Assembly: GCA_022844165.1 (NCBI GenBank)
Contig: JALHMH010000004.1
Span: 10,197 to 74,196 of the forward strand
Reading direction: 5' to 3'
Source of the DNA: Lysobacterales bacterium
Lineage (GTDB): Bacteria; Pseudomonadota; Gammaproteobacteria; Xanthomonadales; SZUA-5
DNA length: 64,000 bases
Shown: piece by piece, positions 7,668 to 64,000 of the stretch
Numbering within the stretch: the first letter of the stretch is position 1
How the letters are laid out: each line of letters opens with the position of its first letter
Notes under the pieces: generated by a model
The model's input: the letters and a program-made list of their open reading frames with translations, nothing else
What the model was told of the DNA's origin: nothing
The model's database searches: none
Translations under genes and position numbers: made by a program

Positions 7668-7689
7668 TGGCTGCAATCGAAGAGTATCC

Positions 7690-37321: not shown

Positions 37322-37452
37322 GATGCGGGCTCCGGGTGGCGACGCGGCGGGCTGCCGCGGCGCGCACTGTGCAAGCGCTGCCGAGCAGCTGCTTGATCAC
37401 CAGATTATCGGTACCTTATCGGCGCGCTCAGAGCACGTAAGGCATTGAACGA
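37292..37452. repeat. ~160-bp direct repeat, copy P (5' end + upstream region of the 35894..37321 gene)
   Basis: It is near-identical to 38490-38650 (caggcagacRatcagcgaacggcagaacacgatgcgggctccgggtggcgac...cagattatcggtaccttatcggcg). Confidence 0.8.
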
Positions 37453-37736
37453 AATAGGATTTGGCGTAGGAAGTTGCGCGCTGGCAGATGGCAACCGCTC
37501 GCTTCTGCGGCTCGATCGCCCCGGACGCCGTGTTTCGGAATGGCTTTGAGTTGGCGAATTGAGGGCAGCGTACAGCCGGCCGCACGCTGCAATAACCGGG
37601 TTGTCACACGAGGGTCGCCCCTACAACGGCACCACTTAACCCTGACGATTCACGCTCCTCTACTATCCGCTCAAGCCGCTTTCGCTCGTGGCGGCGCTGA
37701 GTTGCAATGCGTGAGCCCCAAGAAAGGAGGATTGAG

Positions 37737-44146: not shown

Positions 44147-44683
44147 CTACTTCTCGTGGATCGGATGGATGTCGGCTGGCGAGTCCGTCAGGGGTGCCGC
44201 AACTGGCTTCAGGAACAAAGACTGGGTGGCGTAGTCGATCACGGCGGCATGGGCGTCAAATACGTCCGCCCCGAGAACCACCTCGACATCGGCCGACCCA
44301 TTTGCTCGGAGCGGTGCATTCACGTGCTCGAAATCTAACCCGGCCGGGCCCGCCAGCCGCGGGATAAACGATCCAAGCTGCAAGACCGCGCCCTCGACCC
44401 AGTACTGATCGAGCGCGCCGCCGGCACCGGCTGCCTCTCGGTTCAACCACGTTGTGCGAAGACCGATGTCCCGAACCACCGACATGGCGACCACGGTGAT
44501 AGCAGCCCCGGTATCCACCAATACCTCTACCGGCCTGCCGTTGAGAATGCCGTCTGTGTGGAAATGACCCACGACGCTGCGCCTGAGCGGCAAGCGAACG
44601 TATCCATCGGCGGCCAGGAAGTCGGTCAACTCGCTCATAACATCAGGCTCCAAAGCCGATCGATTGTCAGCAACGACCGCCAA
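44147..44683 (-). CDS. retropepsin-like (clan AA) aspartic protease
   Basis: LVDTGAAITVV catalytic motif and a second-half GADVFDAHAAVIDY. The start is 44683 or 44638. Confidence 0.7.
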   Translation of the reverse strand: MAVVADNRSALEPDVMSELTDFLAADGYVRLPLRRSVVGHFHTDGILNGRPVEVLVDTGAAITVVAMSVVRDIGLRTTWLNREAAGAGGALDQYWVEGAVLQLGSFIPRLAGPAGLDFEHVNAPLRANGSADVEVVLGADVFDAHAAVIDYATQSLFLKPVAAPLTDSPADIHPIHEK

Positions 44684-48236: not shown

Positions 48237-50051
48237 TTAACAACCGCAGGGTCTGGCGTGCAAGCGTCGAAGTAGTGCAGCGCGCAGTTTAGGATTGCGA
48301 GGATCTTGCATCAGCGGCGCATGCTCCACGCCGACACCGGCGAAATACCAGCGCTGTTGTTCAATTCGCAAACTGCTTTTAACGCTCTTGCGGATGACAT
48401 ACTCAAGCTGCCCCCGCTCGTCGATGATCAGAGTGCAGCCACCCAGGAACTCGCCAAATCCATGGGCAAATCGTGTCTGCACGAGTTCGACGACATAGCC
48501 AAGCGCCAGTGCACTTTGCGTTGCGCGTCTTCGTAATGCGCGCACCGATTCGATGCGGATCGGTCCAAACTCCTCCGAAGGCAGCGCGAGGCCCAATTTT
48601 TCAAGCTCCGGCTCGCCAGCGTCTCGAAGCGCCTCCAGAAACTGCGCAACGTGATCCGCTTGGGCGATCCGCCAGTCATGTGTGGGTATGGCCGTGGCGA
48701 AGTTGATCGGCGCCCAATTTGCGCCTTCGTTGAGCCAGCCGATTCGACTGAGGCGATGCAACGCAACAACGGGTAGCGAGAGCAATTCCGCGCGATCCCA
48801 GAGCAGTTCGTTTTCATCCAGCGTCAGCACATCGTCGACGGGGATACTATAGCGACGAAACGCAAGAATCAGCGCTTCCCGATAGCCCCATGGGTCGTCG
48901 CGAACCAGATCGTGATCGGCTGTCACCATGGCCCGCAAGTACTCGCCGAAAGTGACATCGACCGGTGGCAGGTAGTCGATCGCGCGGATACAGATATCGA
49001 GAAACTGATCGGCCAGATCTGTAGCCGCTTTGGCCAAAAGGTCGATGAGCGCTGCACCAGGTGGACCGTTGCCACGCAATGAGCGCAGGCGTTCGGTCTT
49101 GCGTCGGTAGACAATGCGGAAAGCTTCGAAGACGGCAGTTGACAAAATTGAGCCGCGAGCATGCGGCTCGGTTCCGTGATCGTAGCGAAACCTGGACTTG
49201 TTGAGCGATTCGGGGTCCTCATCGTCGATGACGGCGCGACGCAGCGCACTGGCATTGCCCTGAACGGCCTGACCAAACTCGCGTGCCAGTTCCGACAGCA
49301 ATTTGTCGGCGAGGTCGGAAGGATCGTGTTCGATACAGCGTCGGACCTGATCGGGAAAAGCAAAGTGCGAGAACAGTGCCACGAGATCGGCAAAGCCCTC
49401 ATGGATGGCCAGCACATCGACATTCGTTGGCACCAGCATATGGCTGCGAATGCCATCGAGCAAAGCATGCGCCGTCTCATGGACAATCACGTCGAAGGAC
49501 AACGCGGTGCTGACTTGGGTGCCGGTTTGCAGTCGGCCGACAGCGTCTGTCGGCGATGGGAAGTAGCCGAAAGCCAGCCGGCGCCCTTCCGGATCGTAGT
49601 AGGCGTTTGCTTCCGGTAAGTCCACGTTGATTTGCAGCCTGCCTTCGAAAGAGAACTCAGGCTCGCGGCCCAAGGCCTTGGCAACTCGGGCGATTGTCCA
49701 ACTGGCGACGGCATAGCTCATTTGCTGTGCAAACCCAGGATCGCTCGAAGAGGGCTCCAGTCCGCCGTCAACCAACGCAGCAGGTGTGTTTAAATCGGGA
49801 AACGGCTTGTGCGGAGGACGCACGCGCTTCAGACGCGACGGCCATGCGCCTTCGTCCAGCCGCGACAGCTGCAGGCGGCGTCCAATCCCGTTCTGCAGTG
49901 TTTCGTGGGGAATGGCCAGCACGCCGATCGGCCCGTCGACCTTGGGTAGTTGCGGATCTCGGGTGAAGACGCGCAATAGACGACGTTGCTTCGCCGCTGG
50001 CGAAACATCATCGATACGTAAGATGCGCTCGCCTGGTACGGTGAGAATCAT
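48237..50051 (-). CDS. cytoplasmic gluzincin-type metalloprotease (604 aa), thermolysin-like active-site spacing
   Basis: VHETAHALLDGIRSHMLVPTNVDVLAIHEGFADLVA: HExxH, then Glu 23 residues after the second His in an xxHEGFAD context resembling the NExxSD of M4 proteases. There is no signal peptide (MILTVPGERILRIDD). The ~300-aa C-terminal region is unassigned. Confidence 0.75.
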   Translation of the reverse strand: MILTVPGERILRIDDVSPAAKQRRLLRVFTRDPQLPKVDGPIGVLAIPHETLQNGIGRRLQLSRLDEGAWPSRLKRVRPPHKPFPDLNTPAALVDGGLEPSSSDPGFAQQMSYAVASWTIARVAKALGREPEFSFEGRLQINVDLPEANAYYDPEGRRLAFGYFPSPTDAVGRLQTGTQVSTALSFDVIVHETAHALLDGIRSHMLVPTNVDVLAIHEGFADLVALFSHFAFPDQVRRCIEHDPSDLADKLLSELAREFGQAVQGNASALRRAVIDDEDPESLNKSRFRYDHGTEPHARGSILSTAVFEAFRIVYRRKTERLRSLRGNGPPGAALIDLLAKAATDLADQFLDICIRAIDYLPPVDVTFGEYLRAMVTADHDLVRDDPWGYREALILAFRRYSIPVDDVLTLDENELLWDRAELLSLPVVALHRLSRIGWLNEGANWAPINFATAIPTHDWRIAQADHVAQFLEALRDAGEPELEKLGLALPSEEFGPIRIESVRALRRRATQSALALGYVVELVQTRFAHGFGEFLGGCTLIIDERGQLEYVIRKSVKSSLRIEQQRWYFAGVGVEHAPLMQDPRNPKLRAALLRRLHARPCGC

Positions 50052-50105
50052 GACGGCATGCTCACACCGGCCCTGCGCCAGAAGTCGCTCATCTCCTTGC
50101 TCCAG

Positions 50106-50783
50106 TCAATTGCTGCTTTGAATTTTGGCGGCCGGCGTAACTGCCGCCGCAGGGGAAACGCCCTTCAAGAGGCGCACGATCAAGCCCATGGCTTCGTAGG
50201 AACAGAGCGCGCCGCGTGCGCTGTTATTGCGGTCTTCGATGAGGCCGCTGATGTCGATGGCCGAGACGCGCGAATCGCTGCCGGGCGCCAGCCCTGCGCT
50301 GGCCATGCACGGCCTGCCGTCGGTCCCTTCTTTGGGCCCGAGGATTCTCGATTGGGCGGTGATGTCGCCCGGGCAATAAAGTACAACGACCCGTTGCACC
50401 GCACCGAGTGCGCGCATCGGTATCGTGGATGGGAACTGAGACGAGGCGAAGGCATCCCAGCACAAAGCTGGCGCCAGCATCACCAGGACCGAGTGCGGTG
50501 CGTCGAGCGGAGAATTGCTCCAGCGCTTTTTTGCGCGATCGAGATCGCGATCTGCCAACGCAATCAAGAGCGACCCGCAACCGTCGATGACCGACAACAT
50601 GGGCGCATTGGCGTTATTTTCGCCGATAGTCGTTTGGACATCTGTGGGAAACCAAATCGCATCGAGCCGCGCGTCGCTGTTAGGACATCTGAACCCGTGT
50701 TCCAACAGGACCTTTTGGTTGGACTCGGGATCAAAATTGACTATTCCGCTACCGCTGCTCGCGACCAGAACTTTGTTGGGCAT
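50106..50783 (-). CDS. hypothetical 225-aa protein, middle gene of the operon
   Basis: RBS gagaggaga lies 5 nt before ATG 50783 (MPNKVLVASSGSGIV). The start is 14 nt after the upstream stop. There is no signal peptide, no TM helix and no recognised motif. Confidence 0.6.
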   Translation of the reverse strand: MPNKVLVASSGSGIVNFDPESNQKVLLEHGFRCPNSDARLDAIWFPTDVQTTIGENNANAPMLSVIDGCGSLLIALADRDLDRAKKRWSNSPLDAPHSVLVMLAPALCWDAFASSQFPSTIPMRALGAVQRVVVLYCPGDITAQSRILGPKEGTDGRPCMASAGLAPGSDSRVSAIDISGLIEDRNNSARGALCSYEAMGLIVRLLKGVSPAAAVTPAAKIQSSN

Positions 50784-50797
50784 CGTTGTCTCCTCTC

Positions 50798-53700
50798 TCA
50801 CCAACCTACGTGTTCCAAGATGGGCCGAATCAGCCCACCGCCCCATTGCATGACACCCGGCATCTCCAGCACGACGATGGCCAACGCCAAGATCACAAAC
50901 GGCGTCAAGAACGCCGAAATAAAGGTCCAGGAAATGTCGGTGCGACCGGAGGTGTTCGACAACAAGCGGCTCAGCGCTTCATTGCGCTCACACCAGATCA
51001 GCGCGTAACAAAATCCGAATGCGCCCAGCAGGAGATAGCCCAGTGCCACCAGCAGTAAGCCATCGCGCGCACTGATCGGCCAGGCGTAACCGCATGCAAT
51101 CAATGCACCGGCGGCGACAAATGCGCCGTAAAAGCAAAGTCGAATTCGCCTGACCAGATAAGCGGCCAACGTCGCCGCAATCGTCCGATGGGTCAGCGAG
51201 TCGACGTACTGCTGACTAATTTCTGCCATGCCTCCGACGAAGGCGTTGGCCTGTGTAATTCCCAAGAACTTAAGCGACGGCAGCCAATCATGCTCATCGG
51301 CGTTGAACGGCGACTCGCGGAAGAAAGGCGGTATCCAGCGAAGTCGAACCTCACTTCCGTTGTGAACCAGCGCCGTGGTCGGGAGCACCGCCCAGTCGCC
51401 AAGCCTGAACTTGCCATCGGCGCTCGGCAGCGCTTGCATCATGCGCATCGTCAAGCGGCCGCTGAAGCGTCGCAATTCCGACAGCCACATAGCTGCCTGG
51501 AGCAACGCGGTCCAAGCCAGCAATCCGAGCAGCGCGGTCGCCGCGAAGGATGCCCAGGCGACCCAAGCCGAATATGGGACGAAGTGCAATCGAGGGCCCG
51601 AAATGGTCGGTGCGACCACAACGATCAGCGGCAGCAGCGCCAACACACCGACAGCGCCGATCGGACCTCGCGGCAGGCGGACATAGCGGACGAGCAGTTG
51701 TTGCGGATCTCTGATCAGCTCGACGAACCTGGTCGGTGGCTCCTTGTCTCCGTTCGCAATGAAATCGGCCCGCCAGCAGAGCAACCAGGTAGTCAAGAGT
51801 ACGCTTCCGATGACGACCGCGGTCAGCAATGGCAGACTGACGCCGTCGAAGATGCTCCCGGCAGAAGAACCCATCAGCTCATAGAGATTCCAAACAGCTG
51901 GACCGCTGGCCACTGCAGTCGCAACACTCAGCAAACATAGCGGCAATTGCGTTAGCGTCATTTCGGTCCAGACGTTCCATCCAGGAGCGAACTTGGCTGT
52001 TCTTACACTTGCCCAGAAGACGTATCCCAGGCACGCCAAGTTTGTGGTCAGCAAAAGAACTTCTGTGACCGCGGACGACAAGAGAAGAATAGTGAAGCCG
52101 GCCATCCAGGTTATCAAAGGCATCCAGGCGCGCATGGTCGACGACGCGCCAGGGGTTGGGCCGCCCTCCCCGGGCAGAGTGCCGGAGAGCACAATCGCAA
52201 AGAGGACAAAGGCAAAAAGCACCAAGGCAAGGAGCGACATGAACACGGCTCCTCGTCCAGCTAATTTGGCTTCCAATGCCTTCTCTGAAGCGTCCGCCAG
52301 AGACCTTGTTGTTGCGGTATGGAAAAGCGGCGGAAAACCAACGCTGATTCGAAGCGTTGACTGATTGCACCATCTTGTGCAAGCTTTTTCTTCGATGCCC
52401 AAAGATCGAACAAGGCAAAACAGCAGCGCCTGGTCGTCGGTGGAAAACGACTCATAGCTAGGAGTTTGGCCGTGGCTGTGGATCTCAAACTCCAGCGGAT
52501 GCGATGCCAACATCACGGCACCACGCGTGGCATGCGCGACGCTCGAGTGCGACATCAAGACATCGGCCTCTAAGTCGATGAATAAGGCTTGCGGCAGCTC
52601 ACCGCGCAACCGCTGCATCAGAAAGATCCGATCTCTGACATCGGTGGCGGCGATCACGACGATGCGTGGCCTGACATTGATTTTGATGTGGCGGATTGCC
52701 TGTTCAAGTTCGAGTTCGGCGCTGGCGATGGTGGTCGACGCTTGCGTACTTTCTGGAAACTCCGAGCCGTTTTCGGCACCGGGCGCCAGGTCGAGCAGCG
52801 AGTGGGAGTTGGGCAGTCCAAGCGCATCGCGCGCTATCGCTTCGGCACGCCGTTCGCGTTCACGGGCGCCGTGTCGGATGTCGGCGATGTTGGCTGGAAA
52901 ATGGACCTCTAATGCGCGCTGACACAGCTCAAGCTTGGACTCGTCGGCGCAAACTCCGCTGCCAAAAACCGACGCTTCGGAGAAGATCGCGACGTCACGA
53001 GATTGCGCGTTTGGCTGCTCCGGCAACACACCATTGCTGACGAGGCGAGCATGCAGATTCTCGAGCTTGACGTCGTCCGGAACTGCAAATGACCGATAGC
53101 TGAAACCGCCGTACCGCTTAGCCGCATGTTCGTTACTGGAAGACGTCGCAGCGGCCGACACCAGCGTCATCGTCGGCAGCTCACCCGGACGGGTTTGAAT
53201 GCCACGCAGCATTTGAATCGCCGCACTCAGCGGCTTGCAAGCAGCATCGGACTTCCAGCGCTCCTTCAGCCGCTTAACGCCATCGTTGGAGACGCGCCTT
53301 GGTCGATGCTCGGCGAGCAGTGCGGTGAACTCACTGGTGAACAGTGCGAGCTTGCGCCGTTCACGTGCACGACAACGGGTGTCCAATTGAGTGTCCGATT
53401 GAGCGTCTGCACGGGCGTGGCGCAGATGCGCTTCCAGCTTACGAAACGCATCGTGCTGAACCCGATCGATTCGTTCGTAGCGCTTGTGGCTTGATCGCAA
53501 GAGCGCGAAGGCACTGGCGATCGAGGACATTGAGCCGGAAAAAGCGGGACCGATCACCAGCACCGGTTTGACGTCTTCGTGCGTGACTAAAGCCAGCTGG
53601 TCTGGAGGACAGGTGGACTGACGTGTTGGCGTGAACGAACCAGGGATCGGTGCGTTGTCGAACGTCAATGCACGCTGCGGCAGGCATCCATCCCGACCGA

Positions 53701-54982
53701 GCGCCTTCCAGTGCGCCCGTCCAACGGCGTTGGCAAAGGCTTCTCGTTGCACGCCGAAGGAACCCGACTCGCCCACCACGTACAGTGCTCGGACAATGAA
53801 GCCCTCGGCATTGTTTCGACGGTAATCGTCGCGCCGAAACACCAGCACGCCGAACTTGCCATCGTCCACCAGCTGACTGCCGCCGCGTTCGACCGGAGCT
53901 ACGTATTTGGGATCGTCGAGGTACTGCTGCCAGGGCACGCTGTAGCGATCGAGTACGAATCCCGCGCTGAGCATGCCGCGCATGACTGCGTGTACGGATA
54001 GCTCGTACGCTCGGCGATGGCGTGGAATACGCGGGTCGGGAACCAACAACACGCCGTATTCGATGGCATCTGCGTCGGTGTAGATCTCTTCGAAATCGGC
54101 TTCGGGATCGATTTGCCGCGCAATGCCGCTGGTTGGTGTGGGTCGGCCCAGCAAACCGATCTCGATTGCGGTTGCGATCTCGTTCAGCCCCTCATGGGCT
54201 TCCAGACCGAGTTCGTCGATCGCTTCGGCTATTTGCTTATTGGCTGTTGCGACCCCATTGGTCGCATGGGCGATGTTCTGGGTTGCCGAACTCAGTGAAC
54301 TTGGGTTGGCCTGTTCGTCTTTCGTTGAGTCGCGCTTCGAATGCACCGCCTGAGCCACCAGTTCAGTCGCGCCCGACAAAACACTAGCGTGGTGAATGAC
54401 GGCCGAGACCTGGTTTGCTGTATTGGTTCTGTCGTTGATTTGTCCGCGTTCGATCAATCGCAACTCGACCCGTGCGTTTTCCAGTTGTTCCTGCCACAGG
54501 TTGGACTTGTCGCGCAGCCGACGAATGCAACCGTGGATCGAATCGCAGCGCTGGTTGTAGATCAACTCGGTCAGCTTGATCGGGTCGACAAAACGCGGAA
54601 ACTCCGTATCGCCCGCGCACTCGGGGTCTGCCAGCTCATCCACACTCACACACGCCGCTCGTTTCAGGTCACGGACGGTCTGTTCGTTGATCGGCGAAAA
54701 GTGACGGGCTGTAGCGTTGTTTTTCCAGATCGGACCCGATTGCCTTGAGTGGGGCAAAGGACAAAGCTCTTTAACCTTGTCCTGGCATGTTCTCGCCAAG
54801 TCGCACTGACGCTGCACATCAAACTCGAGGTTTGGCGATTGTCCTTGTGGGATGCCCCGCACGACGCGATGGCACTCAAGCACGGTATTGCAGTAGGGCC
54901 GCAACTCCCTCAAATCGGAAATGCACGCTTCCGCTGTTGCAGCCGACGCAAGAATGATCAAGCAGGCAAGTAGAGCGCGCAT
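50798..54982 (-). CDS. giant (about 1394 aa) membrane protein: signal peptide, Cys-rich/coiled-coil region, periplasmic-binding-protein-like region, about 10-12 C-terminal TM helices
   Basis: MRALLACLIILASAATAEA (ATG 54982; alternative 55093). There are 14+ Cys in the first ~200 aa. Type-I-PBP-like strands: YGVLLVPDP, VLVIGPAFSGSMSSIASAF, IVVIAATDVRDRIFLMQRL. A long hydrophobic C-terminal third follows. Confidence 0.75.
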   Translation of the reverse strand: MRALLACLIILASAATAEACISDLRELRPYCNTVLECHRVVRGIPQGQSPNLEFDVQRQCDLARTCQDKVKELCPLPHSRQSGPIWKNNATARHFSPINEQTVRDLKRAACVSVDELADPECAGDTEFPRFVDPIKLTELIYNQRCDSIHGCIRRLRDKSNLWQEQLENARVELRLIERGQINDRTNTANQVSAVIHHASVLSGATELVAQAVHSKRDSTKDEQANPSSLSSATQNIAHATNGVATANKQIAEAIDELGLEAHEGLNEIATAIEIGLLGRPTPTSGIARQIDPEADFEEIYTDADAIEYGVLLVPDPRIPRHRRAYELSVHAVMRGMLSAGFVLDRYSVPWQQYLDDPKYVAPVERGGSQLVDDGKFGVLVFRRDDYRRNNAEGFIVRALYVVGESGSFGVQREAFANAVGRAHWKALGRDGCLPQRALTFDNAPIPGSFTPTRQSTCPPDQLALVTHEDVKPVLVIGPAFSGSMSSIASAFALLRSSHKRYERIDRVQHDAFRKLEAHLRHARADAQSDTQLDTRCRARERRKLALFTSEFTALLAEHRPRRVSNDGVKRLKERWKSDAACKPLSAAIQMLRGIQTRPGELPTMTLVSAAATSSSNEHAAKRYGGFSYRSFAVPDDVKLENLHARLVSNGVLPEQPNAQSRDVAIFSEASVFGSGVCADESKLELCQRALEVHFPANIADIRHGARERERRAEAIARDALGLPNSHSLLDLAPGAENGSEFPESTQASTTIASAELELEQAIRHIKINVRPRIVVIAATDVRDRIFLMQRLRGELPQALFIDLEADVLMSHSSVAHATRGAVMLASHPLEFEIHSHGQTPSYESFSTDDQALLFCLVRSLGIEEKACTRWCNQSTLRISVGFPPLFHTATTRSLADASEKALEAKLAGRGAVFMSLLALVLFAFVLFAIVLSGTLPGEGGPTPGASSTMRAWMPLITWMAGFTILLLSSAVTEVLLLTTNLACLGYVFWASVRTAKFAPGWNVWTEMTLTQLPLCLLSVATAVASGPAVWNLYELMGSSAGSIFDGVSLPLLTAVVIGSVLLTTWLLCWRADFIANGDKEPPTRFVELIRDPQQLLVRYVRLPRGPIGAVGVLALLPLIVVVAPTISGPRLHFVPYSAWVAWASFAATALLGLLAWTALLQAAMWLSELRRFSGRLTMRMMQALPSADGKFRLGDWAVLPTTALVHNGSEVRLRWIPPFFRESPFNADEHDWLPSLKFLGITQANAFVGGMAEISQQYVDSLTHRTIAATLAAYLVRRIRLCFYGAFVAAGALIACGYAWPISARDGLLLVALGYLLLGAFGFCYALIWCERNEALSRLLSNTSGRTDISWTFISAFLTPFVILALAIVVLEMPGVMQWGGGLIRPILEHVGW

Positions 54983-55330
54983 GAGCGGTCCAAACTCTCT
55001 TGCCTGAAAGGAGATGCTTTGAGGTAACGTGTCCCAGATGTTCTGGTAAAGTTTTGTCAAAACTGCCGGCAGGTACTCGTTGCAACTCGGCAACCTGGCC
55101 GGCGCTCGCCGGCGAGCGCTATGGACCTCCAGCGCCTGGCGCGATGCCGGTCAATCCGACGGCCTGCGGCTGTGCACGAAAGCGCCGTCACCCCGGCCGA
55201 CTGCCCTGAAGTCGATTGCGCCAACGCCGCTGGGAATTGCTGCGTCGGATCTCCGCTGATTCGCGGTGTCGTTGTGCGATTGGCCGCGCGAACGCGTTTC
55301 AGTTTCGGACATGCATCCACGAGGTTTCTT

Positions 55331-56005
55331 ATGAGGTCGGTTACCTGGCAGCTAGCAGCGGCAGGTCTGGTGTCGATACTGGTTGTGGCCACGGCGCATG
55401 CGCGCACCGCCAGCGTGCGCGATACGCGACTTGTCGTCGAAAGCGACCACCCGTGCCAGTTGCGTATTGATGGGCGAGAACAGGGGGAAGTGGCGCCTGG
55501 CAAATCCCTGCATTTGAACCTGGATCTCGATGAAGTATTCGTCGAGTGCCAAAGCGAGCGCTTTCAGGACCTGAGGCATGAAGAGGTTTACGCACTGCCC
55601 AAGCTCGATCGAGCAGTGCTGTCCATCGTTTTCGGCGATGCCGTTCGCGACGCAGAAGAGAAGCTCGCGCGACAGCAGACACGGTTTCAAAGTCGATCGG
55701 ACGGCGTATTCGACAAGCAGCAGGGACTGGTCTGGGCGCGGGCCGAAAGCGATAAGGCACTGAACTGGCAACAGGCGCACGACTATTGCCCGAGTCTGGG
55801 CAGCGGCTGGCAATTGCCATCGGTTGCTCAGCTTGAGAGCCTGGCGCATCAGGATGCGCCGTTGGATTTCGGTGTCCAATACCAATGGAGCAACAAACGT
55901 GTTGATACGGATCGCGCGATCGCCGTTCGCGCGAAGTTCGGCATGTGGTCGGTCGAGAAAACGGACAGGCCATACGCTGCGCTCTGCGTGCTGATAAGTG
56001 AGTGA
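55331..56005 (+). CDS. exported DUF1566 (Lcl C-terminal-like) protein with a PEGA-like N-terminal half
   Basis: MRSVTWQLAAAGLVSILVVATAHA. QGLVWARAESDKALNWQQAHDYCPSLGSGWQLPSVAQLESL is the DUF1566 pattern. Confidence 0.65.
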   Translation: MRSVTWQLAAAGLVSILVVATAHARTASVRDTRLVVESDHPCQLRIDGREQGEVAPGKSLHLNLDLDEVFVECQSERFQDLRHEEVYALPKLDRAVLSIVFGDAVRDAEEKLARQQTRFQSRSDGVFDKQQGLVWARAESDKALNWQQAHDYCPSLGSGWQLPSVAQLESLAHQDAPLDFGVQYQWSNKRVDTDRAIAVRAKFGMWSVEKTDRPYAALCVLISE

Positions 56006-56060
56006 AGGCAGTCCCGTCGGGTTTTTGTACTCGGCCGAAGGCGGAGATGGGCGATGCGGG

Positions 56061-56693
56061 ATGCGAGGAAACAGCGGTGCCTGGTTTGTGGAGCCGATCC
56101 ATGCACGTGACCTGCGTGAGAACAGCATCGGGCCTTCGTTTCGTGACCTGGACCTTCGCCACATGGATGATCGGCTGACGCGACTTCGCCAATGGCTGAC
56201 GCCGAATTATCTGCACCGTGCGCTGGCGGTCCCGGAACACGTGCTGCTGAAGCCGGGCTGGCGGTTGTACGTGTTGAAAATCGACGGGCTCACGCGTCAA
56301 CTGACGGGTCCGCGAACGCGAGTCCTGGCATTCGAGCAATTGCGGACGCGGCTGTTTCCCCAGATCTTATTGCGCCTGGATTTCACTGACGTCGTCGACA
56401 TCACCCAGGATGGACATCAGCTATGGCTCTCCGAAGCGGCGACCGTGCGGTGGCGCAATGCCGCACCGAACCCTGCTTCGACCATCGCCTTTGCATTCCA
56501 GTATCTGCCCTTCGCCATCGCTCTGGATGGCGAGTGTCTTAGTGGCGGTTGGATCGTGCCGGCACAAAGTCGCGCCATCGGGGCAGCGCCGCGCATGCGC
56601 CTTCTGGTTGGGTCGCGACAGCTGACCATCGAGTTCGTTGCCGATGGCAACGACGATCCGGCTCGCGCCATGATTGCCAGCCGCAACGGTTGA
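56061..56693 (+). CDS. hypothetical protein
   Basis: The in-frame ATG is at 56061 (or 56163). It has coding-like codon bias. I recognised no family. Confidence 0.45.
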   Translation: MRGNSGAWFVEPIHARDLRENSIGPSFRDLDLRHMDDRLTRLRQWLTPNYLHRALAVPEHVLLKPGWRLYVLKIDGLTRQLTGPRTRVLAFEQLRTRLFPQILLRLDFTDVVDITQDGHQLWLSEAATVRWRNAAPNPASTIAFAFQYLPFAIALDGECLSGGWIVPAQSRAIGAAPRMRLLVGSRQLTIEFVADGNDDPARAMIASRNG

Positions 56694-56835
56694 GACTCGG
56701 CATCGCCTCGTCCCGACATTCGAGCGTGGTTGTGTTGGCGTCACGCTGCATACGCCGTGCGCGGCTTCCTCGTGGGTTGGCCCGTCGCCATCAACTCGTG
56801 AGGGCTGTTCGCGTTGAACCGTCGAGTGCTGGCGC

Positions 56836-58407
56836 CTAAGGATTGAGCAACTCGAAGCGCCTCACATCCAGATTCGGATGGCGCGATTTCAATGCGATCA
56901 GCCAATCTTCCTCTGTCTCTGGCTCGCCAGTCGCCGGCGCCAGACCACCGACGCCGCGCGTCGGTTCGAACGCATAGAGGCCTTCGCCCGGCGTATCCAG
57001 CGCCGCCTGCTGCGCCGCCTGGATATGTTCGCTGTCGATCGGCTCGGCGCTCAACAGCACGAAAAAGCGCTCGCGACCGCCGCGACTGGTAATGCGCCAA
57101 TCGAGCGCCGCATCGGGCAGCCGGTAGCTGCCTGGAGCGAGTGGGTTTTTGAGTGTTGAGGTGTTCAGCGGAAACAGCAAAAAGCGCGCACCAGCCAGGT
57201 CCTCATTGATGACGTAGACGTGGCGGCGGCTGCTCAACGAGAGATTCAGTGCCAAGGCATCGCCGACGCGGGCAGTGGCGCCGTTAGCGAGGATTTCGAT
57301 GCCTTGATCGGTGGTGCGCAGCCATTCGGTGCGATGCGGCACCGGTGCAACCGGCCACCACGCGATGACGGCTGCTACCATCGCGGCGGCCGCAGCCGCG
57401 GCCAGGGGCAGCGCTCGACTTCGCGACGGTGCGGCCCGCAGTGCCGCCGCAAAATTGCCGCAACTCAGGTGTCGCCTGGCCGGATCGGTGACCAGGGCCC
57501 TTTCGATCGCATCGATCAATGTGCGCGGCAGGTCCGGTCGCAAGTCCATCAGTCGTCGGCGCTCGCCGTTCCGTTGCCGGGTTTTGAGCTCGATTACGGT
57601 CTCGGCAGCGTAGGGATAGCTGCGTGTTGCAAGAAAGAACAGCAATACACCCAGGCTGTATTGGTCGGCCAGCGACGTGATCGCCGTTGACGTAAAGCGC
57701 TCCGGCGCCATGAACAGCGGCGTGCCGCTGGCGCCTAAGGGATCGTCGGCGTATTGGCTGGAGCCGAAATCGGCGACGACCCAACGGCCATCGCGATGGC
57801 GCAAGACATTGGCCGGCTTCAGATCGCCGTGGACGATATTGCCCTGATGCAGCGCGCATAGCGCGGCGCACAATTCGGTGCCGATCATGGTCAACTCGCT
57901 GGCGCTGAGTTTGCCCTGGCGTGCCAGCCACTGCTCAAGCGATTCGCCCGGAAGCAACTCGCCGACAAATCCGATGATGCGATCGGTCTCGATGGCGCCG
58001 TACACCTTCAGCACGTTCGGGTGGTCGATGCGTGCCATCAACTGTCCTTCGCGCAGCAGATCCTGGCGGTGGCCGCTCTTGAACACTTTGAGCGCAACGT
58101 CGCGATCCAGTCGCACATCGTGGGCGCGATACACGGTGCCATAACTGCCCTCACCGAGTACCGCGGCGATGCGCAAGTCGCCCACGATGGTGCCGATGGA
58201 TATCGGCCCCGCGGCCTCCGGCACGTCGGCAGCGACCGCAAAACTGCCCGCCAGGGCAGCCACCTGGCGGAGGCTTCCCAGCAGCGCTGGACTTAAGTCC
58301 TCCGCTGCCTTCGTCCAATCGATGGGCAATCCTTCGGCCAGCCGGGTCGTCCACTTGAGTAAGGGATCGGCGTGCAGTGGGGTGACATTACTTGCGGTCG
58401 CCGCCAT
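56836..58407 (-). CDS. Ser/Thr protein kinase with one TM helix and a periplasmic C-terminal domain
   Basis: GEGSYGTVYRA, VALK, HGDLKPANVL, ADFGSS. TM helix LPLAAAAAAAMVAAVIAWW. The C-terminal beta-rich domain is DUF4384-like. Confidence 0.85.
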   Translation of the reverse strand: MAATASNVTPLHADPLLKWTTRLAEGLPIDWTKAAEDLSPALLGSLRQVAALAGSFAVAADVPEAAGPISIGTIVGDLRIAAVLGEGSYGTVYRAHDVRLDRDVALKVFKSGHRQDLLREGQLMARIDHPNVLKVYGAIETDRIIGFVGELLPGESLEQWLARQGKLSASELTMIGTELCAALCALHQGNIVHGDLKPANVLRHRDGRWVVADFGSSQYADDPLGASGTPLFMAPERFTSTAITSLADQYSLGVLLFFLATRSYPYAAETVIELKTRQRNGERRRLMDLRPDLPRTLIDAIERALVTDPARRHLSCGNFAAALRAAPSRSRALPLAAAAAAAMVAAVIAWWPVAPVPHRTEWLRTTDQGIEILANGATARVGDALALNLSLSSRRHVYVINEDLAGARFLLFPLNTSTLKNPLAPGSYRLPDAALDWRITSRGGRERFFVLLSAEPIDSEHIQAAQQAALDTPGEGLYAFEPTRGVGGLAPATGEPETEEDWLIALKSRHPNLDVRRFELLNP

Positions 58408-58536
58408 CGCTCAGTCCTTGCGTATGCTCATGTGATGCGCCAGATTCGTCAGGGCCGGCTGTCTACGTGCTGGGTGGTCGCGGCCGGAAACCGGCCGGAC
58501 GCGCCGGATTCTGGCATGCCTATGGTTCGCCCTGCA

Positions 58537-61500
58537 TCACTCGAAGCCACTGGCGAACAGGCTGTCAAGTACGACTTCGTGAGTCGTGTTACGGCTGCTG
58601 GGATTGAAGTTGGCATTGCCCAGATAGTTGAAACTGATGCTGCGCACGCCGACCTGAGTCAATGTCAGCTGGCAACTGGTGGCAGGCAACGCGATGGTGC
58701 AGTTCTCACTGGCGCTGGCCGAAACCGTAATACTGCCGGTCGGCGATCCAGCGCCCGGCGCCTCGACGCCCAGAATTGCGCTCGCTGTGACGGTTTGGCC
58801 CGCAATCGATGGCGAGGGTGCGATCGAGAGCCCATTGAGTGCCGTATTGGCCGCCAGCACTTGCTGCGCCTGGCCGTCGCAACTGCCGTTGAAACCATTC
58901 CCAGCGGGGAAACATGCTGTGAGCAGTGTGTTGCCGGCAACACTGCTCACCAGTTGGCAACTGCCCGAGCCATTGGTGACGACGCCATTGCACGACGGAC
59001 TTCCGCCGCTTCCGTTGATGAAAAAGCCACCAGTTGGCAAGCTGCCATTGGCCGCGGTGACCAGGACGTTGACGACGTAGGCTTCTCCCACTCGAGAAGG
59101 ATTTGGCGCCTGGCCGGTGATGGTGATTGTGGTGTTCACCGCCTGCGGCATCGTCACAGTATGCGGCTCGGTATCGCTGCTGGATGCATAGCTGGCGTTG
59201 CCCGAGTAGTTGGCGGTGAGCGTTTTTTGCCCGGCACTGGTGGATGTCAACTGACAGGAGGCCATGCCGCCGCTGAGGGTCACGTTGGTGCAGCTGGCGC
59301 CGCTGCCATCGTTGATACTGACCGTGCCGGTCGGCGTGGCGCCGGCGCCCGCGACTTGCACCATGACGGTGTAGGGCTGATTCACCTCGGAGGGATCCGG
59401 TAGATCCGAGGTGATGGTGGTGGTGCTCGGCGGCAAAGTGACCGTGTGCGATTCGGTGTCCTGGCTGGCGGCGAAAGCCTGACTGTTCGGTGTGTAGACG
59501 GCGGTCAGGGTTTTCTGGCCCGGTGTGCTCGATGCCATCTGACAGGAACCGCCGCCGGTGCTGAGCACGATGGTGCAACTGGCGCCGCTCCCATCGCTGA
59601 CGCCGACAGTGCCGGTGGGTGCTGCGAATCCCAGGTTGGTCGCAACCGCTACTACCACTGTGTAGTTCTGACCGATGATCGAGGGATCCGGCGTGTCACT
59701 GATGATCGTGGTCGTGGTGCTGGCCGCCACCACCACGTGCGACTCGGTGTCGCTACTGTTCAAGAAGTTGGGGGCGCCGCTGAAGGTTGCGCTCAAGGTT
59801 TTGTTTCCGACCGTCAACGAGGTGAGCGCGCAGCTGCCATTGCCGCCGCTCAGGGAGGCGATCTGGCAGGTCTGGCCGGTTCCATCGGACACCGTCACCG
59901 TGCCCTGCGGAACCGCCAGATTCCCGTTCGGCGTGCGCACCTGGACTTGCACCTCATATGGCTGCCCAACTTCGCTGGGATCAGGTTGATCGCTGGTGAT
60001 GGTCAGTTGCGTGCCCACCGGATTGATCTGGTGGGGCTCGGTATCTGAGCTCGGCAGATGGAACAGCGATCCGGGAAAGTTGGCGGTCAGGGTTTTGTTG
60101 CCCAGCGTGGTCGACAGCATCTGGCAGCTGCCGCTGCCACTGGCGCTCAGCGCGATAACACACTGCACGCCGCTGCCGTCGCTGATCGTGATCTCGCCAT
60201 TGGGCGTGCCGCTCGGACTCGTGGTTTGCGCCGTCACCTGGTACGGCTGGCCGAACGCCGATGGATCTGGGGTGTCGGCCGTGATGGTGGTGGTACTCGC
60301 GCTGGCTTCGAGGAAACACAGACTCGCTTCGCTGGTGTCGCCGGTGGAGATACGGGTCGCCACGGCCGACAGCACGCCTCCCGTGGCGGTTCCTGGCACC
60401 GCCACGTTGAAGCCCACGACGCCCACCAGATTGGTCACAAACTGGGTCCCGACCAGATTCAGCATGTTGGCGCGGCCGTTGGGACAATCCGGCGAACGAT
60501 AGATGTCGATGATGTACTGGCCGGTCTGAGTGGCCAGCGAGCCCGACACCTGGCGAGTGCCATCGGGGTTGATCGTGGAGGCATTAATGACCGGCTTGTT
60601 CTGGCCGTTGTTCGGGCCGCCATCGGCATCGCCCGGGTCGTTGTCGAGCGGGCCAAGATCGCCGAGTTCGATGTTCTGGGCCAGCGTATTGGTCAGTCCG
60701 TTGGCGAATATCCGGTTCGGCCGGATGGCAACGCCAACGCCGGCGGTGGTCGTCAGGTGCACACCGGGCCCTTCGCTATTGGTGATGGTATTCGACGCGG
60801 CGCTGTTAAGAATGCCGCCAATCTGGTGGTTACCCGAGCCGCCGGTGATGACGATGCCGCTGGCATTGCGGAACGCCGGCGTGGGCACGCCGCTCGCCGC
60901 CGTGCCGAAGCGATTGCGCGCGATCTCGTAGCCGGTGGCAGTGGCGCCGGTGATCGAGAGTCCGGCGGAGTTCTGCGATGCGGCAATCACGTTGTCGAGG
61001 ATGCGTACATCCGGGCTGGCGCTGGCGAAGATGCCGTTACCGGTGATCGGTGAGGCGGCGAGGCCACTGGCGGCTACCCCGATGTAGTTGTTCTGGATCG
61101 TGTGACCGCCGCTGGTGCTGTCGAACAAGGTGATGCCGCTGGTCGACTGGCCGCCGAAGGTGTTGCGATGCTCAGGTTCAGGGCCGCCCACCGTGGCGTC
61201 CTGCGCGCTATCCTCGATGCGCAGGCCGAAACTGAAGGTGCCCAGATTCGCGTGCACACCGGGCCCGGCACCGCCAAAGGCATTGCCCTGCACGATGTGG
61301 TCGCTGCCGCCGCGCAGGCGCACGGCGCTGGTGGCGCTACCGGCAATTGCGTTGAACGCAACACCGCGTAAGATCAGGCTGGTGCCGGCCGGCGCGTTGG
61401 CCGGCACTTGCAGGTAGTGAGTCATGGTCGATCCGAAGGCATGGCTCATCGCCAGACAGATCACCGCATCGCTGCCAAGGGTCTGGGTATTGGGCACGGC

Positions 61501-62760
61501 GCCCGGCTGGCTGTAGCCATCGATTTCCAGGCTGTCGGTGATGTCCGGTAGCGGCGTCAGCAGTTGCACCAAGGGGATATTGGCCAGTACATTGCAACTG
61601 CCAGTGATGTCGAAGACGATCTTCTGTGTGCCCGGCGTGGCATTGGCCGAAGTGATCGCCGCGCGCAGTGAGCCGGCGCCGCTGTCATTCTCGTTGGTGA
61701 CGCTGAGCACCGGCAGATCGCTGATCGAAGACTCAAAGGCGCCCATGTCGTAACGTGTGCCGACCAGGCGCCCGCCGGCAGGGCCATCCAGATCCTGTGC
61801 GGGCGGCGAAAAATTGAGCTGGCTGGCTTCCACACTATTCAGACCGGCGTTGATCGCCACCGACACCGGCGCCGTTTCGCGCAGGCGGAAGTTGCCGCCA
61901 CCCACGAATCCGGGTGTTGAGCTGATGATATTGCCAGCGGATCCACCGGCTGGCAGCAGGCCTTGTGGGATGGCGGGGTAGAGGTTTTCGCGGAACACCC
62001 AGGCCTTCGCATCCGACAGATTCGGTACAGTTATGGCTGTCACGCAGCCGCTGGTGGCGACGATGTTCTGCACGAACAAGGAGTTGCTGCGCTCGCTGTA
62101 AAGACTGAGCGCCGGATCGTTGCCGTTGCACGACAGCGAAAAGGTGTTGAAAGCCACTTCGGGACGCGCGTCAGCGTTGGCATAGGACAGATCGACCGTG
62201 GAGTTGCCCAGCGTGGAGCCCAGCAGGCCCGCCATCACGTTGTTGGAAATGTTGTAGGTCTGGGCGTCGCTGGCGGCGATGAGCACGTACAAGCCGGTCA
62301 CGAATTCGTTGAAGCGAATGCGTATGAAGTCGGTATCCGGGCAGGACTGGCCGAACGGGCATGTGTTTTCGAACAAGAAGAACTGCCGGAAATTCTGGAA
62401 GCGAATGCCCTCGATCCGGAAACTGCGCTGGTTGCCGGTGAAGCTGAAGTCGCTGCCATTGGAGAGCGCACCGCTGCCAGTGAACACTGTGTTGGCGGAG
62501 TTGATCGTGCGTGCGGTGCATCCGCTATTCCAGCCGCCGGTCAAGGAAAACTCCTTGTCCTCACCGCTGCCGAAGCTCAGCCCGGCCGGCAGGGCGTAAC
62601 TGCCGCCGCGCACACGGATGTCCTGCACCGTGCCGTCGGCGTCGCCATTGGCGCTTGCAAACGCCGACTGAATTTCGCTGCTCGTATCGACGCAGTACAC
62701 GGCTGCGTCTACGCCCAAGGCAATCGTGGAGGCCAGGAAGGCACAATAGAAGCGCTGCAT
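58537..62760 (-). CDS. exported 1407-aa protein: parallel beta-helix region + about 8 Ig-like (~95-aa) repeats, ending ..LFASGFE
   Basis: ATG 62760 (MQRFYCAFLASTIALGVDAAVYC). It has beta-helix turns (NNVMAG.., IQNNYIGV.., ILDNVIAAS..). Repeats of T-x-I-x-S/D-x-PDPS-x-x-GQ-x-Y-x-V ... DG-x-G-x-C ... GNKTLTA. The terminal sequence is VVLDSLFASGFE*. Confidence 0.85.
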   Translation of the reverse strand: MQRFYCAFLASTIALGVDAAVYCVDTSSEIQSAFASANGDADGTVQDIRVRGGSYALPAGLSFGSGEDKEFSLTGGWNSGCTARTINSANTVFTGSGALSNGSDFSFTGNQRSFRIEGIRFQNFRQFFLFENTCPFGQSCPDTDFIRIRFNEFVTGLYVLIAASDAQTYNISNNVMAGLLGSTLGNSTVDLSYANADARPEVAFNTFSLSCNGNDPALSLYSERSNSLFVQNIVATSGCVTAITVPNLSDAKAWVFRENLYPAIPQGLLPAGGSAGNIISSTPGFVGGGNFRLRETAPVSVAINAGLNSVEASQLNFSPPAQDLDGPAGGRLVGTRYDMGAFESSISDLPVLSVTNENDSGAGSLRAAITSANATPGTQKIVFDITGSCNVLANIPLVQLLTPLPDITDSLEIDGYSQPGAVPNTQTLGSDAVICLAMSHAFGSTMTHYLQVPANAPAGTSLILRGVAFNAIAGSATSAVRLRGGSDHIVQGNAFGGAGPGVHANLGTFSFGLRIEDSAQDATVGGPEPEHRNTFGGQSTSGITLFDSTSGGHTIQNNYIGVAASGLAASPITGNGIFASASPDVRILDNVIAASQNSAGLSITGATATGYEIARNRFGTAASGVPTPAFRNASGIVITGGSGNHQIGGILNSAASNTITNSEGPGVHLTTTAGVGVAIRPNRIFANGLTNTLAQNIELGDLGPLDNDPGDADGGPNNGQNKPVINASTINPDGTRQVSGSLATQTGQYIIDIYRSPDCPNGRANMLNLVGTQFVTNLVGVVGFNVAVPGTATGGVLSAVATRISTGDTSEASLCFLEASASTTTITADTPDPSAFGQPYQVTAQTTSPSGTPNGEITISDGSGVQCVIALSASGSGSCQMLSTTLGNKTLTANFPGSLFHLPSSDTEPHQINPVGTQLTITSDQPDPSEVGQPYEVQVQVRTPNGNLAVPQGTVTVSDGTGQTCQIASLSGGNGSCALTSLTVGNKTLSATFSGAPNFLNSSDTESHVVVAASTTTTIISDTPDPSIIGQNYTVVVAVATNLGFAAPTGTVGVSDGSGASCTIVLSTGGGSCQMASSTPGQKTLTAVYTPNSQAFAASQDTESHTVTLPPSTTTITSDLPDPSEVNQPYTVMVQVAGAGATPTGTVSINDGSGASCTNVTLSGGMASCQLTSTSAGQKTLTANYSGNASYASSSDTEPHTVTMPQAVNTTITITGQAPNPSRVGEAYVVNVLVTAANGSLPTGGFFINGSGGSPSCNGVVTNGSGSCQLVSSVAGNTLLTACFPAGNGFNGSCDGQAQQVLAANTALNGLSIAPSPSIAGQTVTASAILGVEAPGAGSPTGSITVSASASENCTIALPATSCQLTLTQVGVRSISFNYLGNANFNPSSRNTTHEVVLDSLFASGFE

Positions 62761-63114
62761 GAAGATCCCTGAGTGGTTTGGCTTGCCATGGAAAACGTCG
62801 ACACCAGGCAAAGCGCACAACAGGGCTGCGAATCTCTGCGGATTTCGTCTGCGCGGTCGGCCAGCAGCACTTCGAGGCGCTCAAGGCGGTCTCCCAGCTC
62901 GAACAACTCAGCATGAACCTCGGCCGTGACTTCGATGCGGGGGCTTAAGGTCTCATAGCTGCCCGAGGCGGCAGGCTTGATCCGCACGTCCAGCCATTGC
63001 CAATCGCCCGCGAACTGGGCGATGCCAAAGTCGAGTCGCACACTGAACAGGCCGTTGTTGTACTCCGATCGAGCCGGCTTGCCTTGCTCTATCGGATTCG
63101 GATGGGGGCAGGGT

Positions 63115-64000
63115 TCAATCGCTGTTGCGCGATGACGGCAACACCGTCACTGGATCAAGTGCGGCCAGCGCTTCCAGATCTTCGACAACATTTGGGTGGC
63201 TGTCATCGCCATACAGTTCACGATCGATCGACAATGCCTCGGTCCATTCACTGCGCGCTTGCGCGATACGACCAACCGCCGCTAATGCACGGGCGCGAGA
63301 GGTGCGCCAATTGCGAACTCCCAGGCTGCGCGGGCCGCGGTACTCGCGCGTGGCCTCGCCAACGCGTTCCAGCCGGTCGAGCGCCGCCTGCGGCTGACCG
63401 AGTTCGACCTCCAGATTTGCATAGTTGACCTCAAGACGCAGTGTGGCGCTGTTGTCCGCGCCATATACCGCTCGTCCGTCTTCGAGTGCGCGTTGATACC
63501 AGGGCTGACTTGCAGCGACGTCGCCGCCCAGACGGAGAGCGGATCCAATCATGGACGCAACGTTGACGGCCTGGACGCTGCGCGCGCCGAATCTTCGCTC
63601 CACGATAGGATAAAGCGGCTTCAGCAGTCCTCTCGCTTTGTCGTATTGCTGGTGCACGAGGTAAAGTACTGCGAGCGAGTTCTGCGCAGAAATGGTTCGG
63701 CTATGCGCCTCGCCGCGCAGCGTTGTCAGCCGCGCGATAACGCTGAGATAGGTGCTCTCTGCATTCTCGAAATCGCCGGCATCGCCCAGGGCGATAGCAA
63801 TTGTGTGCAGGTTGCCCAGGGTCGCCGGATCGTCGGCGCCAAGATGCGTCTCAAGCAGCGGTTGCAGCGGCTGCGCCAGGGCCAACGCACGCCGTGCATC
63901 TCCACTACGTGCGATCTGATCGACCAACGCCTGGCGGCGCTCCAGGGTGTCGGAATCGAGGGCACCGAAGGCCTGCTCGCTCTCGCGCGCAACTGCCTCC
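63115..64000 (-). CDS. TPR-repeat protein, C-terminal part (the 5' end probably lies beyond the window)
   Basis: It has repeated A-x-x-x-Y-x-x-A-L / LG-x-x-HP-type TPR units (ESTYLSVIARL.., QPWYQRALEDG.., RSEWTEALSID..). The frame stays open to position 64000. Confidence 0.7.
   Translation of the reverse strand, partial: EAVARESEQAFGALDSDTLERRQALVDQIARSGDARRALALAQPLQPLLETHLGADDPATLGNLHTIAIALGDAGDFENAESTYLSVIARLTTLRGEAHSRTISAQNSLAVLYLVHQQYDKARGLLKPLYPIVERRFGARSVQAVNVASMIGSALRLGGDVAASQPWYQRALEDGRAVYGADNSATLRLEVNYANLEVELGQPQAALDRLERVGEATREYRGPRSLGVRNWRTSRARALAAVGRIAQARSEWTEALSIDRELYGDDSHPNVVEDLEALAALDPVTVLPSSRNSD

Follow-up and report, generated by a model that had tools for sequence, protein, structure and literature searches.

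What kind of system is encoded by three tightly linked genes, none of which matches a Pfam, NCBIfam or PADLOC (PADLOC-DB v2) model, even at E ≤ 1? The question is raised by an operon at positions 48237-54982 of a 64,000-nt stretch of Lysobacterales bacterium DNA (GenBank assembly GCA_022844165.1, contig JALHMH010000004.1, positions 10,197 to 74,196; hereafter the window, meaning the whole stretch that was analysed), which encodes a predicted exported membrane protein (BIG), a small hydrolase-like protein (MID) and a predicted cytoplasmic zinc protease (PROT). Judging from its homologues in other genomes, the operon is a copy, lacking the metacaspase, of a rare and undescribed four-gene cassette. 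As for its function, an extracytoplasmic sensor coupled to an intracellular protease, as suggested in a first-pass annotation of this DNA, is plausible, and we tentatively take the operon for a reduced member of a sensor-coupled protease conflict or cell-death module, a reading that we favour with less than even confidence.

A three-gene operon that belongs to a four-gene cassette

Reading the open reading frames (ORFs) of the window places BIG, MID and PROT consecutively on the minus strand, in the order of transcription:

50798-54982, minus strand: BIG, 1394 aa, start ATG at 54982
50106-50783, minus strand: MID, 225 aa, starting at an internal ATG preceded by GGAG
48237-50051, minus strand: PROT, 604 aa

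The three genes form one operon. The gap between BIG and MID is 14 nt long and contains GGAG, and that between MID and PROT measures 54 nt; coordinates and gaps agree with the first-pass annotation, which had described three tightly linked genes on one strand. The longest ORF of BIG begins at a TTG at 55093, and the ATG at 54982 yields a classic signal peptide. A scan for sigma-70 promoters gave no match in this region, and terminator-like signals were no better than those of shuffled sequence. Look-ups by exact sequence retrieved no recorded copy of the window's own proteins.

Homologues of these genes recur as neighbours in five other independent loci, L001, L004 (Tahibacter harae), L086, L172 and L173, from which we defined the cassette. 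In all of them (5/5), BIG, a gene in the MID position, a metacaspase gene (CASP) and PROT adjoin, the order being BIG-MID-CASP-PROT in L001, L004 and L173 and CASP-PROT-BIG-MID in L086 and L172. A functional linkage is strongly indicated, because two gene orders conserve the same neighbours; chance juxtaposition of the genes was rejected on the same ground. In the first-pass annotation, its reading was to be given up if the three genes did not co-occur elsewhere, and these loci show that they do. A MID homologue lies directly after BIG in L001, L004, L085 and L086, and in L172 and L173 the slot is filled by a gene for 209 and 203 aa, respectively, a candidate MID by position alone. Locus L085 (Pseudomarimonas arenosa) carries BIG and MID and is cut by a contig end.

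The fourth gene, CASP, encodes a protein of ~1000 aa with an N-terminal PGRP/Amidase_2 domain, a middle region and a C-terminal metacaspase domain. The zinc ligands of the PGRP domain and the His/Cys dyad of the metacaspase domain are conserved, with matches to solved metacaspases at E 1e-37, and no signal peptide was found in the CASP proteins, which are predicted to be cytoplasmic. Within the middle region, which has no Pfam annotation, we observed an invariant GHSAG elbow of the alpha/beta-hydrolase type. From these motifs, CASP would appear to be a three-enzyme protein (amidase, alpha/beta-hydrolase-like and metacaspase). The CASP genes occupy L001:6962-9985, L004:7093-9996 and L086:5232-8201, and ~40 other loci are included in the alignment.

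The metacaspase gene is missing from the window

A tblastn search with two CASP proteins detected nothing within the 64-kb window at E ≤ 1e-5, so that of six complete loci only that of the window has no metacaspase gene. The nearest PROT relatives, at 60% (L001), 46% (Tahibacter) and 42% identity, are all accompanied by CASP; parsimony accordingly favours a secondary loss of the metacaspase gene in the lineage of the window. Since the metacaspase is missing here, the three-gene operon is best regarded as a reduced variant and not as the complete system. The slot that CASP occupies in related loci, as given by the gene order in L001, L004 and L173, contains in the window a very short reading frame:

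50048-50092, minus strand: mini-ORF MSDFWRRAGVSMPS*, 14 codons, following AAGGAG in the gap between MID and PROT (whole element 50048-50098)

Its TGA overlaps the ATG of PROT (ATGA). The mini-ORF may be what a deletion left behind, may serve in translational coupling, or both.

These observations bring up the possibility that the operon is a decaying relic, a functionless leftover of the metacaspase deletion whose reading frames are still intact because the loss was recent. Both the isolated position of the window among the complete loci and the presence of the metacaspase beside the closest PROT relatives fit such a relic, as does a mini-ORF with its own ribosome-binding site exactly in the slot of the missing gene. 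However, no frameshift or stop interrupts the ORFs, which have their full lengths of 1394, 225 and 604 aa, and their catalytic and family-invariant residues are kept; the overlap between the stop of the mini-ORF and the start of PROT would keep PROT expressed in a functional-looking arrangement; and the identity of 35-60% to the nearest relatives points to long persistence, although it does not date the deletion itself. The metacaspase may, moreover, be encoded elsewhere in the genome, of which 64 kb are visible. We consider a functionless relic unlikely. Taken as a natural deletion, the caspase-less copy shows which parts of the cassette might be dispensable.

BIG is a predicted exported protein with a Venus-flytrap domain

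Four parts can be distinguished in BIG:

54926-54982, minus strand: signal peptide MRALLACLIILASAATAEA, from translation and hydropathy
54116-54925, minus strand: N-terminal Cys-rich, coiled-coil-like region, residues 20 to ~289, specific to a narrow subfamily
52283-54115, minus strand: Venus-flytrap, type I periplasmic-binding-protein (PBP)-like domain, residues ~290-900, from an AlphaFold2 (AF2) model and Foldseek
50867-52255, minus strand: membrane domain, residues ~910-1372, with ~10 transmembrane (TM) helices, from hydropathy, Lys/Arg (K/R) distribution, AF2 helices and conserved columns

Residues 1-152 contain 11 Cys, and the Cys columns are conserved in the subfamily alignment. The soluble part reaches about residue 900 and is followed by ~10 hydrophobic TM segments (910-1372), much as in the first-pass annotation, which had listed a signal peptide, a Cys-rich region, a coiled coil and ~10-12 TM helices. 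The PBP-like pattern also suggested there was borne out by an AF2 model of residues 280-1394, built from a 44-sequence alignment (pLDDT 75, pTM 0.77): all of the top 50 Foldseek matches in the PDB (50/50; probability ~1.0, best E 5.5e-4) were type I PBP/Venus-flytrap structures, among them LIVBP-type ABC binding proteins, mGluR2/3/5, CaSR and T1R, with target-normalised TM-scores of 0.25-0.40 across the matches. The flytrap carries the conserved motifs VPDPRxPRHRR, GPxFSGS and ATDVRDR, as well as a helical insertion around residues 484-595. Pfam, including the ANF_receptor and Peripla_BP_x families, gave no match in BIG or in 43 relatives. The view that BIG is an extracytoplasmic PBP/Venus-flytrap receptor-like membrane protein is supported by the model, and its exported location is predicted from the signal peptide.

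According to the K/R distribution and the positive-inside rule, both termini of BIG would lie outside and the loop at 1168-1279, a conserved stretch of 112 residues with an invariant P1225, would be cytoplasmic. A profile search of the membrane domain against PDB sequences retrieved no convincing relative; the weak matches to SLC13 and to G-protein-coupled receptors (GPCRs; E 0.003-0.02) are most likely compositional. Like the Venus-flytrap receptors (LIVBP-type; class C GPCRs such as mGluR and CaSR), BIG would have a bilobed type I PBP fold set on a polytopic membrane domain. It differs from these receptors in its ~10 TM helices instead of 7, in the large helical insertion in the flytrap and in having no sequence-family membership.

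BIG aligns over its full length with the members encoded in the four-gene cassettes (29-40% identity), including the L001 homologue (35%). The subfamily with the Cys-rich N terminus is tiny, comprising 11 proteins in 5.8 billion. The flytrap region, by comparison, detects at least 1,024 cluster representatives (50% identity), mostly of ~1100 aa and without Pfam domains. These distant relatives of ~1100 aa do not have the Cys-rich N-terminal region, and an N-terminal hydrophobic segment or signal peptide is present in most members of the broad family.

PROT is a predicted zinc protease of a large unannotated family

The catalytic motif of PROT lies in the N-terminal half of the protein:

49386-49481, minus strand: HETAH (residues 191-195), 22 residues, EGFAD (218-222), from translation

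In 35 homologues there is no variation at H191, E192, H195, E218 and D222, and an N-terminal hydrophobic segment is absent from PROT, so that the HETAH-x22-E(GFAD) arrangement without a signal peptide recorded in the earlier reading held good. Because it has no signal peptide, PROT is placed in the cytoplasm, and its sequence-based assignment as an intracellular gluzincin-type metallopeptidase with a thermolysin motif appears right. Searching the family profile against the PDB yielded weak thermolysin and aureolysin matches located exactly at the motif (E 0.2-0.5; thermolysin matches 0.2-0.9). In the AF2 model (pLDDT 87.5, pTM 0.92), a beta-sheet is followed by the active-site helix and then by the helix carrying the Glu, as in zincins, and the chain also has a beta region at its N terminus and, at its C terminus, an alpha/beta domain of ~170 residues with an unassigned fold. 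A Foldseek search with the whole-chain model against the PDB and the viral BFVD retrieved nothing at E ≤ 0.001, and thermolysin was absent from the top matches.

PROT thus has in common with the thermolysin-like M4 peptidases the HExxH motif, the ExxxD on the next helix and the zincin-like order of secondary structure. In contrast with them, it has no match to Pfam Peptidase_M4 or M4_C (E ≤ 1) and no Foldseek match to thermolysin (E ≤ 0.001, whole chain searched), is predicted to be cytoplasmic, without signal peptide or propeptide, and carries the extra N-terminal beta region and C-terminal domain.

The family is large, with more than 2,564 homologous clusters (90% identity; E ≤ 1e-3), none of which has Pfam domains and a few of which carry the source name 'peptidase M4'. 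At least 584 matches, counting one genome per species, were confirmed in Acidobacteriota, Pseudomonadota, Planctomycetota, Gemmatimonadota, Verrucomicrobiota and others. The family is present on 57 plasmids and nearly absent from phage records, and the hosts of PROT relatives are mostly soil bacteria.

MID is probably a non-catalytic hydrolase remnant

The five MID homologues share the motifs LVLLAPxLxxDxF and VVLxCPxD and a conserved C-terminal helix. Over its C-terminal half, MID is 49% identical to the L001 homologue and 44% identical to that of L004. The same half, and no other part of the protein, aligned in hhalign with three DUF900 proteins encoded beside distant BIG-like genes (probability 82%, E 1.1e-5), a link that we grade as weak. 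MID has no signal peptide, and neither a Pfam match (PF05990 included) nor, by profile search, a PDB match was obtained. In the five sequences there is no conserved Ser or His at the positions of a GxSxG nucleophile elbow. As the nucleophile Ser is not conserved, MID is probably non-catalytic, and we regard it as probably a cytoplasmic remnant of a DUF900-like alpha/beta-hydrolase. The first-pass statement that the protein has no nameable motif stands with respect to Pfam, NCBIfam and PADLOC, in which it has no match, but not with respect to the C-terminal half, which aligns to DUF900 alpha/beta-hydrolases.

We also aligned MID with the middle domain of CASP by hhalign; the resemblance was weak and non-significant (probability 2%, E 0.023), suggestive of homology at most, the aligned motifs being AVGHSAG with AVGxG and FLAPAxRVDxF with LLAPxLxxDxF. 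A search of other BIG-like loci for effectors that carry a fused MID-like domain gave weak matches to DUF900 proteins and nothing more.

A sensor coupled to intracellular proteolysis?

Placed together, the predicted parts suggest the following sequence of events. BIG would bind a ligand in the periplasm, our leading guess being a peptide, a muropeptide or a similar molecule derived from the envelope, and would relay the signal through its membrane domain and the conserved cytoplasmic loop, with MID serving as a non-catalytic adaptor. The output would be cytoplasmic proteolysis that is switched on, by metacaspase and PROT in the full system and by PROT alone in the window. PROT might then cut cellular targets or pro-enzymes, so that growth stops, the cell dies or some other drastic response follows, resembling abortive infection.

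The wider neighbourhoods of PROT relatives offer some support for such a role. In ~42/73 loci, a PGRP-metacaspase gene lies directly upstream of the PROT relative. Other relatives are located downstream of a Peptidase_M43 gene and a small protein, upstream of an astacin-like gene or beside a patatin; there are also fusions to an N-terminal S8 subtilase, with a downstream MBL-fold gene that matches the PADLOC LmuA and Avs1a models. On the Rhizobium rhizogenes plasmid pColt5.8d, the PROT locus is flanked by CBASS (cyclase and SAVED), ImmA/IrrE and Septu-like PtuA/PtuB genes. Together with the plasmid gene orders given below, this suggests that the PROT family may provide the uncharacterised protease of some Lamassu-like 'hydrolase-protease' modules; an LmuB-like ATPase was seen only beside a distant PROT relative, on a Hymenobacter plasmid. 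The far flanks, which were read for two of the five cassette loci (L001 and L004), contain restriction-modification, ParDE, integrase or MmeI genes.

The gene strings of the two plasmids are as follows: in L171 (Hymenobacter volaticus plasmid NZ_CP095066.1, 4592-10339), an LmuB-like ATPase, the PROT relative and an MBL gene; in L170 (R. rhizogenes pColt5.8d, 5813-10528), a patatin, the PROT relative and an MBL gene.

Distant BIG-like genes, for their part, adjoin genes for a signal-peptide-less patatin, a trypsin-NucA protein, a C14 peptidase and a muramidase-papain protein, as well as DUF900 hydrolases and peptidoglycan hydrolases; a CHAT gene beside one of them encodes a product with a hydrophobic N terminus. 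Amidohydrolases, TonB-dependent receptors, S9 peptidases and sedolisins are found there too. One metagenomic locus (L089, contig k127_23217235, 1-13543) contains, on the same strand, a trypsin, a 782-aa C14 protein, a 1137-aa GMC oxidoreductase, a small protein, a trypsin-Endonuclease_NS protein and a distant BIG-like gene, a string that resembles the peptidase and NucA 'System 3' of Kaur et al. (2020) with a flytrap membrane protein added.

Several points weigh against a conflict or cell-death role. Enrichment for defence genes was not seen beside the metacaspase-PROT pair: across 30 genomes, the four nearest flanking genes were mostly metabolic, with few defence matches, though some loci lie in islands. 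The defence-island association of the pair is patchy, not general, and it is a minority of neighbourhoods that speaks for a role in defence. The genes next to distant BIG-like genes often suit nutrient acquisition equally well. PADLOC models match none of BIG, MID and PROT, and the flanks of the operon within the window showed neither an integrase or transposase nor a recognised defence gene. The metacaspase is absent here though it is present in every other complete locus, so that this copy is possibly inactive. The weakness of the alignment between MID and the DUF900 proteins counts on the same side. What the analysis shows is the operon, the folds and motifs, the locations as judged from signal peptides and the linkage of the genes; the ligand, the transmembrane signalling, the adaptor role of MID and the targets of PROT are steps that we infer.

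The nutritional genes lead to a different possibility, uptake and catabolism, in which BIG would be a binding domain joined to a permease for the import of peptides or fragments of peptidoglycan, and PROT, together with the AmpD-like amidase, hydrolase and peptidase where present, would degrade them in the cytoplasm. This would be comparable to muropeptide recycling of the AmpG/AmpD type or to scavenging of cell-wall debris. Much of what we found is compatible with it: the closest structures to the BIG flytrap include binding proteins of LIVBP-type ABC transporters; CASP has an Amidase_2 domain with conserved zinc ligands, and Amidase_2 is the family of the cytoplasmic AmpD; the amidohydrolases, TonB-dependent receptors, S9 peptidases and sedolisins that often adjoin members of the broad BIG-like family bear signal peptides; most genes flanking the metacaspase-PROT pair are metabolic; and soil bacteria predominate among the hosts. 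Yet the membrane domain of BIG matches no known transporter in our searches, the SLC13 and GPCR matches being weak and composition-like, and neither an ATPase nor another transport component is linked to the genes. Metacaspase-type peptidases are not known to act as muropeptide-degrading enzymes. Catabolism also leaves unexplained why PROT relatives occur in defence islands beside genes for patatin and for MBL nuclease-like and LmuB-like proteins, and the neighbourhoods of the pair are not conserved, as would be the case for a self-contained accessory module. We judge uptake and catabolism to be unlikely.

BIG and PROT could also serve in non-lethal envelope signalling, where BIG would sense a periplasmic cue and PROT would cleave a regulator, by analogy with the cleavage of anti-sigma factors, thereby changing gene expression. 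The sensor-like architecture of BIG agrees with this, as do the chromosomal, non-island context of the window and PROT itself, which in the model looks like a cytoplasmic, site-specific zinc endopeptidase. One distant BIG-like locus lies near a gene of the sigma-70 family, and others are near TPR/Trans_reg_C regulators. No regulator gene, however, is conserved in the cassette, and the conserved partners (metacaspase, patatin, MBL, S8) are degradative enzymes of the effector type. Non-lethal signalling seems to us quite improbable, and a conflict or cell-death module, tentative as it is, continues to be the reading that we favour.

A bolder version of that favoured reading concerns the full cassette. 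It would represent a cell-death or immune system of a new, envelope-sensing class, in which the flytrap receptor would perceive a danger signal in the periplasm and set off a cascade of PGRP-metacaspase and PROT; the PROT family would supply a general protease, activating or executing, recruited repeatedly by conflict systems and paired there with modules of the metacaspase, S8, patatin, MBL nuclease and Lamassu-like kinds; and the copy in the window would be a natural minimal version free of the caspase. We consider this version doubtful.

Relation to described systems

A search of the literature found no description of such a system. The first-pass opinion that the combination is not a described one was upheld, with no match in Pfam, NCBIfam, PADLOC or the literature. 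The cassette, as well as the PROT and BIG families, is thus new with respect to the databases and literature searched, and what is already known is the theme of conflict modules that combine proteases with membrane sensors.

Proteases that activate co-encoded pro-enzymes have recently been described, including a trypsin-like protease paired with a gated MBL pro-nuclease in Avs, Hachiman and Lamassu, and the caspase-nuclease 'canu' (PMC12799240). The genes studied here are similar in that a protease gene is recurrently coupled to a gene for a second degradative enzyme, that PROT relatives lie beside MBL genes matching LmuA and Avs1a, once beside an LmuB-like ATPase, and that the cassette pairs PROT with a caspase-family protease. 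They differ in that PROT is predicted to be a gluzincin and not a trypsin-like or caspase-type protease, in that the window has no MBL gene, and in that an exported membrane receptor, instead of a cytoplasmic ATPase, would serve as the sensor; a cleavage relation between the partners is, in our case, only proposed.

Among the conflict systems of Kaur et al. (PMC7159879), System 4 comprises membrane-associated EACC1 and caspase, to which TM helices and a PBP domain outside the cell are added in some cases, whereas System 3 comprises peptidases and NucA. The likeness lies in a membrane-proximal peptidase of the caspase superfamily, in some cases with an extracellular PBP domain, and in the distant BIG-like genes that share operons with trypsin, C14 and trypsin-NucA genes or lie near muramidase-papain genes. 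Our genes differ in that the PBP domain would be carried by a separate protein of ~10 TM helices and not fused to the caspase. EACC1, EAD, STAND and vWA-MoxR were not seen here, no search aimed at them having been made. Text searches of the article did not find PROT, MID or BIG named there.

The Amidase_2-metacaspase architecture was reported, without a function, in Polaromonas, Nitrosococcus and others by Asplund-Samuelsson et al. (2012; PMC3501461). CASP has the same architecture, and the Polaromonas loci recur in our set (L029 and L057), but adjacent PROT, BIG and MID genes were not reported in that work, and the window is without this gene.

If a sensor-to-protease system is indeed encoded here, it would couple an extracytoplasmic receptor to caspase-type proteolysis inside bacterial cells, an unusual input, since the bacterial immune sensors characterised so far mostly work in the cytoplasm. 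Its layout would formally parallel the receptor-triggered caspase pathways of animals, and it would add a zinc-protease partner alongside the recently described pairs of protease and pro-nuclease. If the genes are catabolic instead, they would define a pathway for peptidoglycan or peptides that is widespread in soil bacteria. PROT and BIG both belong to large families without annotation, that of PROT extending over hundreds of species.

Composition and surroundings of the operon

The first-pass annotation had set a GC content of about 50-58%, from sampled lines of the operon region, against about 65-70% in core genes. These figures were wrong: the computed GC is 58.9% for the BIG-MID-PROT region and 61.5% for the 64-kb window, a difference of 2.6 points. 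The region has the lowest GC of all windows of the same size (6.7 kb), yet it is ~1 standard deviation (SD) under the gene-level mean, and the GC at third codon positions (GC3) is 0.64-0.69 in the three genes for a gene mean of 0.72 (SD 0.06). Because the contrast is small, GC is a weak argument for foreign origin, and the idea of a foreign low-GC island was rejected as it had been stated.

The operon is flanked by genes for a pyridoxal-phosphate (PLP)-dependent enzyme, an Lcl_C-domain protein, a Ser/Thr kinase with DUF4384, a Big_3_5 adhesin and a TPR protein; farther away lie P450 and TetR genes (38.8-41.4 kb), a uracil-DNA glycosylase (UDG), a retropepsin-like protease and a cupin. No SMC/AAA ATPase of the LmuB-like kind was found among the flanking ORFs of the window. 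The segment at 41-48 kb had been described as a field of gene remnants, but it contains recognisable genes for the UDG, the retropepsin-like protease, the cupin and the PLP enzyme and is not obviously such a field. The kinase and adhesin genes lie on the other side of the operon, and its surroundings do not clearly form a defence or mobile island.

At 55121-63927, the Lcl_C-domain gene lies upstream of BIG and is divergently transcribed; it is followed by the gene for the DUF4384 Ser/Thr kinase, that for a 1427-aa protein with five Big_3_5 Ig-like repeats and that for the TPR protein. These genes may form a surface or signalling cluster of their own, which is not conserved beside the cassette in other loci. 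Among small ORFs without family assignment, a 178-aa ORF at 44147-44683 on the minus strand matches the retropepsin-like Asp_protease_2 and gag-asp_proteas families. Within the 64 kb, the stretch at 33000-37500 (GC 0.66-0.69, GC3 0.84-0.87) is a stronger compositional outlier than the operon region.

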